Below are positions 4,398 through 25,570 of a stretch of 64,000 bases of DNA, piece after piece. How positions within the stretch are numbered: the first letter of the stretch is position 1; every line of letters begins with the position of its first letter. Below the pieces are notes generated by a model. It was not told the DNA's origin. It saw only the letters and a program-made list of their open reading frames with translations, and made no database searches. The stretch covers positions 1,629-65,628 of the forward strand of contig JAGORL010000002.1 of NCBI GenBank assembly GCA_018062825.1, in the 5' to 3' direction. The DNA comes from Patescibacteria group bacterium (GTDB taxonomy: Bacteria > Patescibacteriota > Patescibacteriia > UBA9934). A program made the position numbers and the translations under genes.

Positions 4398-5699
4398 GTG
4401 GCTACCGAACAACCCCCAAAAACCCCAACAAAACCAACGATCAAACTCACGAAAGAACTTCGAGAACTCTTAGAGGTCTTAGAAAACACTTCAGAGAACG
4501 TTTTCCTAAGCGGTAAAGCCGGCACCGGAAAATCAACTTTCTTGAGATACTTTCGATCGATCACCAAAAAGAATGTAGTCGTCCTGGCGCCAACTGGCAT
4601 TGCCGCCGTTGGGATTCAAGGGCAAACAATTCACTCCTTTTTTAAATTTGGCATTGATACCACGCTCAATGATGTGGAGCCGGTTGCAAAAAGCGCTATC
4701 TATAAAAAGATTGATCTCCTGGTTATTGATGAAATCTCCATGGTGCGCTCGGATCTTTTTGATTGCATGGAAAAGTTCATGCGCTTAAATGGCAGAGAGA
4801 AGCACCTCCCCTTTGGTGGCGTGCAGCTACTTGTAATTGGAGACTTACATCAACTGCCACCGGTCGTAAAAAGAAATGGTGAAGAGAACATTTTTACCGA
4901 ACTCTACGAAGGGCCGCATTTCTTTGACGCCATGTCATACCGCAGTGCCGAATTTAAAAAGATGGAACTTACCCACGTTTTTCGTCAAAATCAAAAACAC
5001 TTCATCGAGGCGCTTGATGCGATTCGGATCAACAAGTACACCGCCAAGCACCTAAAGCTCATTAACGATCGAGTAGCTAAAAATAACGATCACGAGCTTG
5101 ATTTCACTATCTCAATTGTTACTACCAACAAAACCGCGGATGAGATCAACAAGAAAAAACTAGAAAGTTTGAGTACCAAAAAGAAGGTGTACAAAGGCGC
5201 TATTCAAGGCAAGTTCAAAGAAACACTCCCAACCGATGAAAGCCTTGAACTCAAATGCGGTTCGCAAGTCATGCTCATTAAAAACGACCCAGAGGGCCGC
5301 TTTGTAAATGGCGATATCGGTAAAGTGAAATCACTGACCGATAGTGAAGTAGAGGTTATTTTCGAAAGCGGCAAGTGCGTGAGCGTGAGTTCAGAAACCT
5401 GGAACAATATCAATTTCAAACTTGATTCCGCCAAAAGAAAGATTGAAACCGAAACCGTCGGATCATTCACACAAATTCCGATCAAACTCGCCTGGGCGAT
5501 CACCATTCACAAAGCTCAGGGCAAAACCTTTGATAAAGTACATATTGATATGGGCCGCGGCGCCTTTGATTCAGGGCAGACATACGTTGCTCTGAGTCGA
5601 GCACGAACACTCGAAGGTATAACATTAAAGCAACCAATTTATCCGAGAGATATTTATACAAATTCTAGAGTCGATGCTTTTATGAGCAATGACCGTTAG
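4398..5699 (+). CDS. Pif1/RecD-family ATP-dependent DNA helicase
   Basis: Walker A LSGKAGTGKST, FGGVQLLVIGDLHQLPPV, AITIHKAQGKTFDKV, YVALSRAR. Confidence 0.8.
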   Translation: MATEQPPKTPTKPTIKLTKELRELLEVLENTSENVFLSGKAGTGKSTFLRYFRSITKKNVVVLAPTGIAAVGIQGQTIHSFFKFGIDTTLNDVEPVAKSAIYKKIDLLVIDEISMVRSDLFDCMEKFMRLNGREKHLPFGGVQLLVIGDLHQLPPVVKRNGEENIFTELYEGPHFFDAMSYRSAEFKKMELTHVFRQNQKHFIEALDAIRINKYTAKHLKLINDRVAKNNDHELDFTISIVTTNKTADEINKKKLESLSTKKKVYKGAIQGKFKETLPTDESLELKCGSQVMLIKNDPEGRFVNGDIGKVKSLTDSEVEVIFESGKCVSVSSETWNNINFKLDSAKRKIETETVGSFTQIPIKLAWAITIHKAQGKTFDKVHIDMGRGAFDSGQTYVALSRARTLEGITLKQPIYPRDIYTNSRVDAFMSNDR

Positions 5700-22774: not shown

Positions 22775-24457
22775 TTATTCGAAATCGTGAATACGATCCA
22801 TGTAGGCAATCTCATCTTTAGCGAGCGTACCCCAAGATGTCTTTGTCGTCTTTTTCTTCTTCAACAGATTAGCGAAATGCTCGCCGCCAAGCATGCTCGG
22901 CACAATCACGAACGTTGCCCCAAGTGCATAACAACGTGCAGCGTCACTTGATGACTTCACGGTCATGATGGCGGAACCTGCATAGTGATGTGCTGACAGA
23001 TAATCCATGATGTCATCATTCACCTGCATATCAGGCACAGTGGAGATAACCATCTTTGCCTTATCGGTTTTGATAAAGTGGAGCACATCTTCGCTGCCAA
23101 CGTCACCATACATACAAGGAATGCCGCGTGCCGCTAAAAGCTCAATAACTGCCGGATTGTAATCCACAACCAAATAGTGCTTCGTAATCGCCTGAATTTC
23201 CGGCAAAATACGCGCGCCCATCCGATCATAACCAAACAAAATGATTTGCGGAGTAACTGCATGCCTCGCCTCTTTATCAAGTCCCTTGCTACGCAAAAAC
23301 GGCAAAAACTTGGCAGCAAAATCAAAGATACGTTCGTTGTATGAAATGAGGTAGGAGGAACCGGCGATCGTTGCGAGTCCAACAACGGTTGCAAGCGGCA
23401 TAGCGCTTGGAGCGATCAAACCGGCAGCAACACCACCAGCAATTAAAATAAATGAGAACTCGCTAATCTGGGCCACTGTAGTACCGACCAAAAAGCCAGT
23501 ACGGGCGTGGTACCCCATGAAGCGCATGATAAGTAAGACCAAGAGCGGATTACCAATAAGGATAAATAGGCTGAAGATAACGCTCGGAACAAGCAGTGCG
23601 CCAAAATCTCCGCCCGCCAAATGCGTACCAAGAACAATAAAGAAAATAACCAAGAAGAAATCACGAAGCACACGCACCTTGGCCTCAATCTCATGCTGAA
23701 AGCCACTACCTGCTAACGTGATACCAGCCATAAGCGCTCCTATCTCAATACCAAACCCAAGAAGTAAAAGCGCTGATGAAATAGCAAAACACCAAGCGAT
23801 CGCCATCAAGAACAAAAGCTCGGTTGAACGAGCGGCAAATCTAAACAGGTGCGGCACAATGAACTTCCCAAGAAATGCCAACGAGACAACGGCGATAAGC
23901 GCCTTACCAAAAGAAACCGTAAGAATGTTGGACCACGTACCGCCGTCTTGCATGGCTGCAAGCAAAAGCAACAAGACCATGGCGAGTAAATCCTGAACGA
24001 GCAGCATGCCAACCGCTACCCGACCATATAAACGATCAATATCTTCTTTGTCAGAAAGCATCTTCACGATGATAATCGTGGAAGAAAAGGCAAACGCCGT
24101 GGACAAAAAGAGCGCCGTCACCGGATCAAACCCCAACCCCACACCAATGAGCCAACCAACAGCTGTTGTAAACGCTACCTGGCCAAACCCGAGCATGAGC
24201 GCCACACGCCCAACCTCGGCAATGTTGCGCCAGTTTAAATTAAGACCAACGATAAAAAGCAGAAACGCGATACCGATCGAGGACATGGTTTCAAAGAGCT
24301 CCATGCTCTGCGCAAAGCCAAGCGTGCCAGGGCCAACGATCATGCCGGTAACAATATAGGCAATAATAAGTGGCTGCCTCAGCTTAAAAGCCAAGAGCGA
24401 CAGTAACCCGGCAATCATGATGACAACCGCAATTTCAAGAAAGAGTTCATTGAACAT
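22775..24457 (-). CDS. CPA2-family cation:proton antiporter with RCK/TrkA domains (Kef-like)
   Basis: Multi-TM Na+/H+ exchanger region plus TrkA-N (ILFGYDRMGARI ... VVDYNP) and a C-terminal RCK. Start set at MFNELFLEIAVV. Confidence 0.8.
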   Translation of the reverse strand: MFNELFLEIAVVIMIAGLLSLLAFKLRQPLIIAYIVTGMIVGPGTLGFAQSMELFETMSSIGIAFLLFIVGLNLNWRNIAEVGRVALMLGFGQVAFTTAVGWLIGVGLGFDPVTALFLSTAFAFSSTIIIVKMLSDKEDIDRLYGRVAVGMLLVQDLLAMVLLLLLAAMQDGGTWSNILTVSFGKALIAVVSLAFLGKFIVPHLFRFAARSTELLFLMAIAWCFAISSALLLLGFGIEIGALMAGITLAGSGFQHEIEAKVRVLRDFFLVIFFIVLGTHLAGGDFGALLVPSVIFSLFILIGNPLLVLLIMRFMGYHARTGFLVGTTVAQISEFSFILIAGGVAAGLIAPSAMPLATVVGLATIAGSSYLISYNERIFDFAAKFLPFLRSKGLDKEARHAVTPQIILFGYDRMGARILPEIQAITKHYLVVDYNPAVIELLAARGIPCMYGDVGSEDVLHFIKTDKAKMVISTVPDMQVNDDIMDYLSAHHYAGSAIMTVKSSSDAARCYALGATFVIVPSMLGGEHFANLLKKKKTTKTSWGTLAKDEIAYMDRIHDFE

Positions 24458-24565
24458 AACAATGCAGCAAGTATAACAAGAATTTTCGATGCACCGCGTG
24501 ATAATGAACAATCACCTCCGAGCTTTGACGGCACAAAAAAGCTCTGCTATTCTATCGTTCGTCAG

Positions 24566-24871
24566 AAATACGGCCTTATCGTCTAGCGGCTATCCGGCAA
24601 AGCCGGACCCGGCTCTGCCGGGGGACGTCATATGTACATCGTCTATATACTTTCGTCCGAAAGCAATAATCGCTGGTACATTGGAATGACTGCAGACATT
24701 AAGGTTCGTTTAGGTGAACACAATGCAGGTCGCGTGCGCTCCACAAAGCCATATGTTCCGTATCGCATTATTTATACGGAAACATATCCAGACAAAACAA
24801 CTGCGCGGAAAAGAGAGATTCAGATTAAAAAATCTGGATTAATCCGCAAGCAGTTAAAAGACAGGATTACC
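24566..24871 (+). mobile_element. 306-bp GIY-YIG mini-element inserted at the 5' end of tRNA-Glu, bounded by 26-bp direct repeats (24566-24591 and 24872-24897)
   Basis: The repeat AATACGGCCTTATCGTCTAGCGGCTA covers the first 21 nt of the tRNA. Two tandem hairpins (TCCGGCAAAGCCGGA, CCCGGCTCTGCCGGG) precede the ORF. Confidence 0.45.
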
Positions 24872-24898
24872 AATACGGCCTTATCGTCTAGCGGCTAG
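24632..24898 (+). CDS. GIY-YIG nuclease family protein (small, YhbQ/UPF0213-like)
   Basis: MYIVYIL ... WYIGMT ... R ... EHN ... motif set. The stop codon TAG lies inside the D-arm of tRNA-Glu. Confidence 0.8.
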   Translation: MYIVYILSSESNNRWYIGMTADIKVRLGEHNAGRVRSTKPYVPYRIIYTETYPDKTTARKREIQIKKSGLIRKQLKDRITNTALSSSG

Positions 24899-24951
24899 GA
24901 CGGCACCCTCTCACGGTGCAGACCCGGGTTCGATTCCCGGTAAGGTCACCA
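24877..24951 (+). tRNA. tRNA-Glu (anticodon CUC)
   Basis: Acceptor GGCCTTA/TAAGGTC (one G-U), anticodon stem GCACC/GGTGC, loop CTCTCAC, T-arm CCGGG-TTCGATT-CCCGG, CCA encoded. Confidence 0.85.
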
Positions 24952-24983
24952 AAAAACCACTTCAGCCATGAAGTGGTTTTTTG
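24952..24983. terminator. bidirectional terminator (AAAAAACCACTTC-AGCCAT-GAAGTGGTTTTTT)
   Basis: Read directly. Confidence 0.8.
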
Positions 24984-25003
24984 TTATCTCGTATTATGAA
25001 GTG

Positions 25004-25570
25004 CTACTCGAACCGCAACGTCTCAAGAATCCACTCTGCAAAATATGAATCGGAACCTATCGAAGAAAAGTGATACGCACGAGCCGAATCACGAGGGTCT
25101 ACGATGTACCACGTATGACTAGGGTTCATGTCGGTAACAAAAAAATGAATTGTCGGAATATCACGGATCATCTCGGTTCGATAATATGACTCGTCCTGCA
25201 GGGTAAAAATAGAAGAATTCTCAGGTGGATCGATGAAGCCATGACGACCAGCCACAAGATCCTCAAGCGAGGTCCCCTCTGGAATATCCACGGTCTCAAT
25301 ACTTAAAGTCGGAAAACTCTTGAAATCACGGTAAGTCAAATTATTCTCATGCCAAATATCACCTTCAAACAAGACAAACGACGGATCAGGAAGATCAAGA
25401 ATGACACCATGTGTGCGAACCGTGAGATCAATCTCTTGCTGAGGCTTTGCAACCTCTTCACGAATCTCCCGGAGCATCATGGTTTGATTACCAAGCATGA
25501 CAATGATGATCGCAATGATAGCAAGTTGAAAGCTGATGATAACAAGATGAGATTTTTTCATATTATTCAA
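25004..25570 (-). CDS. hypothetical membrane-anchored protein
   Basis: N-terminal TM segment followed by a 160-aa soluble part. Confidence 0.45.
   Translation of the reverse strand: MNNMKKSHLVIISFQLAIIAIIIVMLGNQTMMLREIREEVAKPQQEIDLTVRTHGVILDLPDPSFVLFEGDIWHENNLTYRDFKSFPTLSIETVDIPEGTSLEDLVAGRHGFIDPPENSSIFTLQDESYYRTEMIRDIPTIHFFVTDMNPSHTWYIVDPRDSARAYHFSSIGSDSYFAEWILETLRFE

Follow-up and report, generated by a model that had tools for sequence, protein, structure and literature searches.

A GIY-YIG nuclease gene with a palindromic double hairpin, fused to a tRNA-Glu gene of Patescibacteria, belongs to a widespread cassette family at tRNA genes

In a 64,000-nucleotide stretch of a Patescibacteria genome (hereafter the window; all coordinates are positions within it), the tRNA-Glu(CTC) gene is preceded by a partial copy of its own 5' end that is interrupted by two small hairpins, and by an open reading frame (ORF) for an 88-aa GIY-YIG nuclease that ends inside the intact tRNA gene. 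We consider it, on balance, probable that this tRNA-Glu(CTC) transcription unit has been colonised by a minimal, free-standing selfish cassette resembling a homing endonuclease gene, the chemistry of whose insertion we infer. The cassette belongs to a large and widespread family located at tRNA genes.

The unit is delimited by an exact 26-nt direct repeat, AATACGGCCTTATCGTCTAGCGGCTA, found at positions 24567-24592 and 24872-24897 with a start-to-start distance of 305 nt; two matches to this sequence were obtained in 0 of 100 shuffles of the window. As the original prediction had stated, both copies carry nt 1-21 of the tRNA-Glu gene, which was verified with ARAGORN and Rfam, although the repeat spacing, and hence the extra DNA, amounts to 305 bp and not to the 306 bp proposed. 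The left repeat (24567-24592, + strand) is composed of the leader AATAC (24567-24571) and tRNA nt 1-21 (24572-24592), is identical to the right one at 26 of 26 positions, and forms the 5' portion of a tRNA remnant into which the hairpin unit is inserted. This unit, a GC-rich double hairpin of 30 nt with the sequence TCCGGCaaaGCCGGA-CCCGGCtctGCCGGG (24593-24622, + strand), is located between nt 21 and nt 22 of the remnant. Folding gave two adjoining hairpins (24593-24607 and 24608-24622), each with a 6-bp stem and a 3-nt loop, in agreement with the two tandem hairpins described initially; folded as DNA, the pair reaches -13.9 kcal/mol (z = -3.75), and it occurs as a single copy in the window. 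Past the hairpins the remnant continues with GGACG (24623-24627, + strand; tRNA nt 22-26), and two of the four bases that follow (TCAT) still agree with the tRNA. Membership of the 26-mer in a longer tRNA gene remnant had been named as an observation that would speak against the predicted insertion, and this is partly the case, the remnant extending 5 nt beyond the 26-mer here and to nt 30-42 in relatives.

The 88-aa ORF of the UPF0213/YhbQ type (24632-24898, + strand; Pfam PF01541) is preceded by a G-rich Shine-Dalgarno-like run (24620-24625) that overlaps the 3' arm of the second hairpin. The ORF lacks its own stop codon and is terminated by the TAG at 24896-24898, which consists of tRNA nt 20-22, in the D-loop, and straddles the repeat boundary. 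The right repeat (24872-24897, + strand; AATAC followed by tRNA nt 1-21) therefore doubles as the last eight codons of the ORF (NTALSSSG) and as the leader and 5' end of the functional tRNA. These eight codons had been placed, together with the TAG, inside the tRNA gene; all eight are indeed contained in the right repeat, but only six of them, plus 1 nt and the stop codon, lie within the tRNA itself. The intact tRNA-Glu with anticodon CTC is located at 24877-24951 (+ strand; ARAGORN; Rfam RF00005, 60.3 bits). In line with the initial description of a nuclease-only unit, neither an integrase nor a transposase is encoded in the 305 bp or in the adjacent genes, and a tblastn search of the window revealed no second copy of the nuclease gene.

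An insertion-type unit ahead of a regenerated tRNA-Glu gene had been predicted, and a search for empty sites in relatives had been suggested. Such a site was found in a locus designated L124 (retrieved loci are given here as L numbers), which was obtained by using the neighbouring 188-aa protein as a search handle. L124 has 82-85% nucleotide identity to the window in the flanks, shares the Mur ligase, the 188-aa homologue, tRNA-Glu(CTC) and the Na+/H+ exchanger, and matches the window in the promoter, in the leader AGAAATAC and at 75 of the 75 positions of the tRNA (BLAST and MAFFT). At the tRNA leader the sole difference between both sequences is one gap of exactly 305 bp, bounded in L124 by a single 26-mer; the absent segment is 24593-24897 (+ strand), and the gap can equally be written as 24567-24871. 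The nuclease gene is thus present or absent among relatives at the same locus, a state that a precise deletion would also produce. L124 contains, in addition, a 239-aa gene between the 188-aa homologue and tRNA-Glu (4581-5300) that the window lacks. Across the locus, the window is matched at 100% identity by three contigs obtained from other samples, and the ORF product is 100% identical to an NCBI protein of a 'Patescibacteria group bacterium'. A further relative, L125, is 97.7% identical over 4.5 kb and offers no empty site, its similarity ending exactly at the 3' end of tRNA-Glu (CACCA). Beyond this point (L125 4540-4800, against window position 24946) it continues into two unrelated genes, with no tRNA and nothing that matches the 64-kb window; the junction may reflect a rearrangement, the border of an island or a break in the assembly at the tRNA.

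The order of tRNA remnant, palindrome, ORF and intact tRNA was observed in 18 of the 21 distinct ORF copies in the retrieved loci, the hosts being genes for tRNA-Glu (both isoacceptors), Gln, Ile, Met, Arg and Lys. The ORFs P0002 (L004) and P0007 (L001), with 65-70% identity, are located upstream of tRNA-Glu(TTC) genes and show the same architecture, namely tRNA nt 1-21, the same two hairpins as in the window, more tRNA sequence, approximately 10-20 nt, the ORF and a complete tRNA; in L001 the tRNA piece after the hairpins, GGACACGGGCTTT, corresponds to nt 22-34. The C-termini of both proteins (..APSSNG or ..NGPIV) are the tRNA 5' end translated in two different frames, which means that all of these ORFs borrow a TAA or TAG of the D-loop as their stop codon. 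The remnants in the retrieved loci span the leader to approximately nt 30-42 and match the local tRNA, and the match after the hairpin comprises 13 nt in L001, 16 nt in L094, 9 nt in L076 and 12 nt in L128. The palindrome, in either orientation, occupies position 8/9, 12/13, 15/16, 21/22, 22/23 or 35/36 of the remnant. Flanking repeats of 11, 13, 21, 22, 24, 26, 34, 81 and 94 nt were found across the family; they include 0-13 nt of leader at most loci and the whole promoter in L134. The repeat of L127 has 34 nt, of which 13 nt are native leader, and L147, at a tRNA-Ile gene, is a close parallel to the window, with a 22-nt repeat and a different 30-nt double hairpin followed by GGTTA.

Since a sample retrieved through the hairpin is biased, a protein-based metagenome scan was run with the 7 closest ORFs as query, which provides a sample that is unbiased with respect to the hairpin. 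A tRNA gene (Glu, Lys, Tyr, Ala, Arg, Trp, Ile, Thr or Met) was located directly downstream in about 20 of the 80 relatives, which have 36-69% identity. Exact flanking repeats of 13-94 nt were present around 12 of 66 metagenome ORFs, in comparison to 0 of 57 in the control, and a GC-rich palindrome was found inside the remnant in 8 of the 9 metagenome loci with a clear remnant.

The copies of the cassette differ in their state of preservation. Premature stop codons interrupt the ORFs of L035, L038 and L081; L042 has kept the remnant and the 30-mer but no more of the ORF than its last ~26 nt; and only a 5-nt spacer is left in L118. Intact, pseudogenised and deleted copies are therefore found among relatives, which is the degeneration and loss expected of a homing gene. 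The metagenome-assembled genome (MAG) Modern_marine.mb.212 combines a degenerate cassette at tRNA-Glu(TTC) with remnants at tRNA-Glu(CTC) from which the ORF is missing. That the two tRNA-Glu isoacceptors share the layout, and that copies may be intact, degenerate or devoid of the ORF, fits a selfish element. Tandem or nested cassettes are present in L015 and L095, and in L020 and L159 the ORF and the intact tRNA, in this order, stand between two disrupted copies. In L108 the 5' remnant on the upstream side, TCCGGGG, is complementary to the 3' remnant on the downstream side, CCCCGGA, whereas CTCGGGG/CCCCGAG is found in the intact tRNA-Gln that separates the two; as the remnants form one acceptor stem and the intact tRNA another, the functional tRNA came with the cassette. 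A neighbor-joining tree weakly grouped the window ORF (CTC host) with that of L004 (TTC host) and not with the CTC-hosted L076 ORF on the basis of 77 residues. This grouping, which ignores the tRNA-Glu isoacceptor, gives a faint indication that the cassette may have moved between tRNA genes.

Several of the retrieved loci deserve a separate mention. L134 (1045-1520) has a 94-nt direct repeat around the GIY-YIG ORF, containing a TTGACT promoter-like region, the leader, a tRNA-Arg-like 5' half and the start of the palindrome; no intact tRNA was detected in this 2.6-kb locus. In L135 (470-730) the downstream tRNA seems to carry an insertion of ~190 nt after the anticodon-loop region, followed by a good T-arm and acceptor 3' end. 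This insertion may be a group I intron as reported in Patescibacteria tRNAs, and has no Rfam match at the gathering score. In L104 (602-2388, - strand) a 41%-identical GIY-YIG ORF (2284-2048) is located inside the 5' (V1) region of a 16S rRNA gene; the insertion is closed by the inverted pair ccccacacctttt / aaaaggtgtgggg, and a 30-mer lies just upstream of the 16S start. MAGs labelled 'uncultured Gammaproteobacteria' (L009, L012, L013, L022, L029 and others) carry the Patescibacteria-type 30-mer and GIY-YIG/tRNA-Glu cassettes, L012 encoding P0005, and these labels are probably wrong.

The assignment of the 88-aa protein as a YhbQ-like GIY-YIG nuclease was borne out. PF01541 matches residues 1-67 with an E value of 1e-14 and 55 bits (cutoff 22.6), and the closest solved relatives are the single-domain UPF0213 proteins 1zg2 (BH0048, 9e-7), the best of them, and 1ywl (EF2693); the alignment to the 107-aa 1zg2 covers residues 3-72. 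Pfam gave one more match, T5orf172 (20.6 bits), but it overlaps that to GIY-YIG, so that no second domain is present. The PHROG family 'homing endonuclease with GIY-YIG motif' matches the protein weakly (5e-4), and the NCBIfam 'group I intron endonuclease' model reaches 17 bits where 56 are required, and covers only residues 4-32. In an alignment of 19 relatives Y5, Y16, G18, R26, H30, E62 and K66 are invariant, and the catalytic set (Tyr of GIY, Tyr of YIG, Arg, His and Glu) is conserved. Neither the Pfam nor the PDB comparison revealed a sequence-reading DNA-binding domain; the catalytic domain alone is present. Within the clade of the window ORF, nonsynonymous divergence (dN) is 0.12-0.38 and synonymous divergence (dS) is saturated, so that dN/dS could be computed for few pairs only. 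As judged from these values, the ORFs are under purifying selection, and saturation of dS between family members indicates that the family is old.

The hairpins had been described as a part of the unit; they proved not to be private to it, and copies of the 30-mer occur at more than 100 other places. The pattern TCCGGCnnnGCCGGA-CCCGGCnnnGCCGGG was used to scan the contigs of one genome per species and matched at least 119 stretches, with ~106 distinct copies in Patescibacteria-type loci. These and the following numbers on copies and genomes refer to the matches listed. The matches with a 3-nt loop are almost all in MAGs of Uhrbacteria, Kerfeldbacteria, Parcubacteria and other Patescibacteria, several of which have 5-8 copies, and there were 0 matches in viral contigs. 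Matches with a 4-5-nt loop in high-GC Actinobacteria were set aside, as they look like chance in GC-rich DNA. Two of the 108 distinct 3-nt-loop copies are likewise chance matches in Actinobacteria. Long open frames contain 33 of the 108, which nearly always read SGxAGPGxAG or PGxAGSGxAG, including copies in UvrB, GyrA, GyrB, a UvrD-like helicase, RecG, DnaX and GatB (loci L071, L024, L112, L083, L117, L088 and L060). Compared to the solved proteins, the 30-mer is a clean 10-residue insertion in UvrB, and corresponds in GyrA to two 5-residue gaps of ~10 residues in all. The 30-mer is thus a short, dispersed, multi-copy palindrome, and its structure is conserved in the manner of repetitive extragenic palindromic (REP) sequences, REPINs or Rickettsia palindromic elements (RPEs): variant 30-mers keep both stems through compensatory changes, with 6 of 12 pairs covarying and all cells pairing, which 0 of 500 shuffles reached. 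As synonymous sites are saturated between cassettes whereas the stems are identical, the hairpin must be constrained or renewed.

About a quarter of the 3-nt-loop copies lie within 300 nt of a tRNA gene, mostly in partial tRNA copies beside an intact one, and tRNA remnants with a 30-mer but without an ORF are found, for example, in L007, L022 and L049. L007 (3681-4100) has three tRNA-Val sequences in a row, namely a full-length but diverged copy, an intact gene and a copy of nt 8-76, of which the first and the third have a 30-mer in the T-loop. The first is like the intact gene to the left of the 30-mer and of another type to its right, which suggests, from the sequence pattern, gene conversion up to the palindrome. 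The flanks of the 30-mer show an orientation-specific preference, T(-2) W(-1) ^ S(+1) R(+2), which is also seen in copies remote from tRNAs. In the vicinity of tRNAs the insertion site reads GTT^CAA or GTT^CGA and thus equals the universal T-loop motif, which is also recognised by the phage endonuclease SegB. The GIY-YIG ORF is the only gene repeatedly found beside the 30-mer in the retrieved loci. Other dispersed palindromes were observed there as well, among them a 20-mer, CCTGCCTGCCGGCAGGCAGG, and a TCCGCC-type 30-mer, TCCGCCnnnGGCGGA-CC(A/C)GCCnnnGGC(T/G)GG; they occur in tRNA remnants upstream of other GIY-YIG ORFs, and copies of these palindromes are located at L135 195-214, at L159 1099-1118 and 1571-1590, in L044, L117 and L119, at L147 1154-1183, and in L014, L078 and L115. 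Patterns based on the L015a- and L108-type hairpins had no further copies among the retrieved loci.

The element-like nature of the unit, the empty site and the regeneration of the tRNA were thus upheld, whereas the clean 26-bp target duplication, like the private hairpins, was not. The tRNA sequence resumes past the hairpins, the position of the hairpin varies and the repeats of the family range from 11 to 94 nt, which speaks against a simple target-site duplication. The repeat preceding the hairpin is always 100% identical to the local tRNA (26/26 in the window, 34/34 in L127), whereas the piece following it is diverged in the window (7/12), in L004 and in L127 (15/21); at the divergence of the latter piece, 34 identities of 34 in L127 would have a probability of ~1e-5. 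Both repeats are of the local type, often including non-conserved leader (5 nt in the window, 13 nt in L127 and 5 nt in L147). The local repeats, with their leader and their perfect pre-hairpin part, indicate that the repeats are made locally at each insertion. The asymmetry between a perfect left arm and a diverged post-hairpin piece is what is expected if the former derives from the recipient and the latter from the donor.

On this basis a copy-choice mechanism can be proposed. The nuclease, by comparison with SegB at the T-loop motif, would break the DNA of a tRNA gene in a loop-coding segment, and during repair of the break the cassette would be copied in from a donor; candidate donors are a conspecific allele, a paralogous tRNA-Glu gene and transforming DNA. 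The recipient leader and nt 1-21 would pair with the left remnant of the donor and prime the copying of the hairpin, the old remnant and the ORF, and synthesis would return to the recipient at tRNA +1 or a few bases upstream of it. The survivors would be only those products that rebuild the whole tRNA. This mechanism would account for a repeat with a constant right end, at the hairpin site, and a variable left end, for two local repeats with an older post-hairpin piece, and for ORF tails that are variable and cut short, with a stop codon taken from the tRNA. Over time, the ORF would decay or be lost by deletion between the repeats. That the nuclease targets the tRNA or mobilises the unit is accordingly a presumption of the model.

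As for expression, a promoter-like site, TTGACG-17-TATTCT with a TG extension, was found by consensus scan at 24525-24553 (+ strand) and is kept in L124. It is the native tRNA-Glu promoter, now located upstream of the remnant, the ORF and the tRNA; the same scan found no second + strand promoter-like site between it and the ORF. The cassette would be co-transcribed with the tRNA from this promoter. Cleavage by RNase P at tRNA +1 (24877) would remove the stop codon, so that the full-length protein could be made only from the unprocessed precursor. This processing, together with the overlap between the second hairpin and the Shine-Dalgarno-like run, should limit the potentially toxic nuclease to a low level of expression. 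Downstream of the tRNA, a 15-bp inverted repeat without mismatches, flanked by runs of A and T (24950-24983), is kept in L124 and L125. It is a terminator-like hairpin common to the tRNA unit and the convergent gene of the 188-aa protein, and was not called by the consensus terminator scan. The neighbours of the tRNA-Glu unit are the genes of an Na+/H+ exchanger with a TrkA-N domain and of the hypothetical 188-aa protein.

Several observations weigh against a homing-like selfish cassette. The empty state of L124 could have arisen by precise deletion or slippage between the 26-nt repeats and need not be ancestral. The protein has 88 aa and is devoid of any DNA-binding domain such as those to which SegB and I-TevI owe their site specificity. 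Most of the 30-mer loci were retrieved via the hairpin pattern and are a biased sample, and no tRNA is located near about 45 of the 80 metagenome relatives, which means that the protein family is not wholly bound to tRNAs and that a part of it may be ordinary cellular genes. As the remnant in L129 (tRNA-Lys) is free of a palindrome, the hairpin is not a required part. The presumed target persists in the intact tRNA, and self-cleavage would have to be tolerated or prevented, a paradox that is shared by SegB. In L001, L076, L094, L128, L135 and L159 the post-hairpin piece is identical to the local tRNA, which is more readily explained by local formation or gene conversion than by import with the element. 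Finally, homologous homing from a foreign donor would predict a right repeat of the donor type; both repeats are local here, and the return step of the copy-choice mechanism was added to explain this.

Other origins of the locus have to be weighed against these points. Direct repeats that rebuild a tRNA gene are a hallmark of insertion by integrases, and integron cassettes and CTX-type elements use folded hairpins as recombination sites; both facts would suit a site-specific integration by a recombinase acting in trans, as in tRNA islands and Xer-dependent elements, with the 26-mer as attachment (att) core. Such an integration is nevertheless very improbable, given that no tyrosine or serine recombinase is encoded in the 305 bp or the adjacent genes, that the repeat boundaries vary by locus and include non-conserved leader bases, that the repeat is the 5' and not the usual 3' part of the tRNA, and that no circular or free form is known, with 0 matches in viral contigs. 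A phage origin was likewise rejected, in view of the absence of 30-mer matches in viral contigs and the weak PHROG match (5e-4). Alternatively, a transposon-like event, either cut-and-paste or by copying, could have placed 279 bp, composed of the hairpins and the stop-less ORF, into the D-loop position 21/22, nicks ~26 nt apart and fill-in giving rise to the 26-bp duplication. The local type of both repeats with their native leader (5, 13 and 5 nt, as given above), the location of the hairpin unit exactly at the left junction 21/22 in the clade of the window ORF, the perfect pre-hairpin repeats beside post-hairpin pieces that can diverge, and the variable-length duplications of Penelope-like retroelements with GIY-YIG would all agree with it. 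However, the resumption of the tRNA past the hairpin, usually as a local match, means that the duplicated segment spans the hairpin; a fixed short duplication is not what is observed (11-94 nt), and the hairpin position varies; there are no terminal inverted repeats joining the ends, both hairpins being at the left end; and no transposase, ligase or reverse transcriptase is encoded. Known GIY-YIG endonucleases, moreover, leave 2-nt 3' overhangs (PMC2330249). We regard a transposon-like event as quite unlikely. The remnant of a group I intron with its homing endonuclease is the least probable origin and can hardly be maintained. Group I introns are frequent in the tRNA genes of Patescibacteria, commonly at position 35/36, where several cassettes have their palindrome, and some of them contain endonuclease genes (PMC13011429). 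These endonucleases are, however, of the HNH, LAGLIDADG and PD-(D/E)XK types and not GIY-YIG, and the same paper mentions neither tRNA-Glu, nor GIY-YIG, nor hairpins (PMC13011429). An Rfam search of 24300-25200 at E<=1 gave only the tRNA above the gathering score, together with weak unrelated RNA matches and no intron, and none was found at the gathering score in L020 or L135; moreover, the downstream tRNA is uninterrupted and leaves nothing to splice, and 279 bp with a 264-bp ORF leave no room for a ribozyme core.

Two further explanations concern the relation between the nuclease and its surroundings. The locus could be non-mobile, an old partial duplication of tRNA-Glu to which a UPF0213 gene was recruited and a palindrome added later, inherited vertically with gene conversion keeping the repeats identical. 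UPF0213/YhbQ proteins are common cellular proteins, and the ~45 of 80 relatives that are not beside tRNAs, the purifying selection on the ORF, as for a useful host gene, and the age implied by saturated synonymous sites are all in its favour; so are the independent preference of the 30-mer for T-W^S-R sites and tRNA loops, its presence in many ORF-less remnants, and the fact that a precise loss between the repeats gives the L124 state. Nevertheless, the three-part layout recurs at 9 or more tRNA species and both tRNA-Glu isoacceptors, each time with repeats specific to the locus, copies are often pseudogenised or have lost the ORF, ORF relationships do not track the tRNA type, cassettes occur in tandem or nested (L015, L095, L159, L020), and neutral remnants as old as the saturated ORFs should have decayed, yet are perfect. 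A non-mobile origin is thus unlikely, though not negligible. It is also conceivable that nuclease and palindrome form a pair comparable to RAYT and REPIN, the GIY-YIG protein acting in trans to cut at, and to spread, the 30-mers, with the hairpin beside its gene as cis site, while the tRNA remnants are collateral at TT^CR (T-loop-like) targets. The hairpin unit is nearly always 7-30 nt upstream of the ORF and was seen or inferred in at least 5 of 7 protein-retrieved homologues. ORF lineages differ in their palindrome while keeping the same geometry (variants in L128 and L147, the L108 and L015a types, the 20-mer of L135 and L159), and the stems are invariant or compensated while adjacent synonymous sites are saturated. 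A cassette was seen in 11 of ~17 MAGs with two or more 30-mers in a rough tabulation of the matches listed, and the preferred site GTT^C(A/G)A is the T-loop motif recognised by SegB. On the other hand, no cassette was found in the retrieved loci of the MAGs H32-bin145_1 and bin.251, which have 6-7 30-mers; the window has one 30-mer per 64 kb; the L129 cassette lacks a palindrome; GIY-YIG nucleases have no known means of inserting a 30-nt hairpin; host lineage could be the source of the co-variation; and the sampling, restricted to the matches listed, is biased. The pair acting in this way is, in our estimate, distinctly doubtful. A related and more far-reaching proposal, which we hold to be a minor possibility, is that the GIY-YIG protein and the double hairpin are an unrecognised two-component mobile system, in which breaks at TT^CR allow palindromes of 20-30 nt to be copied in, alone or with the gene. 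It would account for the palindromes in tRNA remnants, for the in-frame copies in GyrA, GyrB, UvrB and others, and for the tracking of nuclease lineage by palindrome type.

If the homing-like selfish cassette is the correct reading, it is about the smallest self-contained selfish gene unit known from bacteria, with ~280 bp and a single 88-aa nuclease domain, and it manages without a DNA-binding domain, an intron or a recombinase. It would survive in the tiny, streamlined genomes of Patescibacteria by using the promoter and the stop codon of the tRNA while leaving an intact tRNA copy. It would also extend the SegB-type biology of tRNA-cluster endonucleases from phages to bacterial chromosomes, and provide the widespread UPF0213/YhbQ proteins with a testable function. 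The palindromes in tRNA remnants and in frame in essential genes matter for tRNA and gene annotation in candidate phyla. Neither GIY-YIG cassettes located at bacterial tRNA genes nor the 30-nt palindrome turned up in full-text searches of the literature.

Individual features of the locus can be compared to several known systems. The UPF0213/YhbQ proteins 1zg2 (BH0048) and 1ywl (EF2693) have the same size and single-domain architecture as the cassette protein; to our knowledge, however, their genes are treated as ordinary cellular ones, with no record of tRNA association, flanking repeats or a pseudogenisation cycle. Like the 30-mer, Rickettsia palindromic elements and REPINs are short, GC-rich, dispersed multi-copy palindromes. 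The former are also found in frame in essential genes and in RNA genes, but have 100-150 nt and not 30 nt, while a REPIN is likewise an inverted hairpin doublet associated with a single protein gene, which encodes an HUH/Y1 transposase and not a GIY-YIG nuclease. Unlike both, the 30-mer has a strong preference for tRNA-loop-like TT^CR sites. Integrase islands and prophages share with the cassette direct repeats of a part of a tRNA next to an intact tRNA; the cassette differs from them in having no recombinase, a length of 305 bp, a repeat of the 5' and not the 3' part of the tRNA, and variable boundaries.

GIY-YIG ORFs have been described in non-intron insertions of rRNA genes in the candidate phyla radiation (CPR) (Tsurumaki et al. 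2024, PMC11270868). These belong to the same phylum and also place a small GIY-YIG ORF in a structured-RNA gene without an intron ribozyme, L104 being such a case; they interrupt the rRNA gene, whereas the tRNA of the cassette is regenerated through duplication of its 5' part, and tRNA loci are not included in that work (PMC11270868). The closest known analogue is SegB of the phages T4 and T6. SegB is a free-standing GIY-YIG endonuclease encoded in phage tRNA clusters, which recognises GGTTCRANTCC, spreads by homing, and cuts many tRNA genes, including those of its own genome (PMC2330249); it also drives a recombination-dependent segmental duplication of tRNA genes and segB (PMC13096335). Both are GIY-YIG genes at tRNA genes, outside an intron, and present or absent among relatives, and the conserved tRNA-gene target, the retention of cleavable sites of its own and the local duplications that leave truncated copies may be likened to what is seen in the cassette family. 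However, SegB has ~220 aa with a C-terminal DNA-binding region (NUMOD3), while the cassette protein has 88 aa and the catalytic domain only, and SegB is a phage gene, while the cassette is located on a Patescibacteria chromosome. SegB also has no overlap of ORF and tRNA, no borrowed stop codon, no palindromic unit and no regular remnant of a tRNA 5' half, all of which are present in the cassette. A tRNA-associated, free-standing gene of the GIY-YIG homing type is thus known; what is new is the bare catalytic domain, the palindromic unit and the fusion to the host tRNA.

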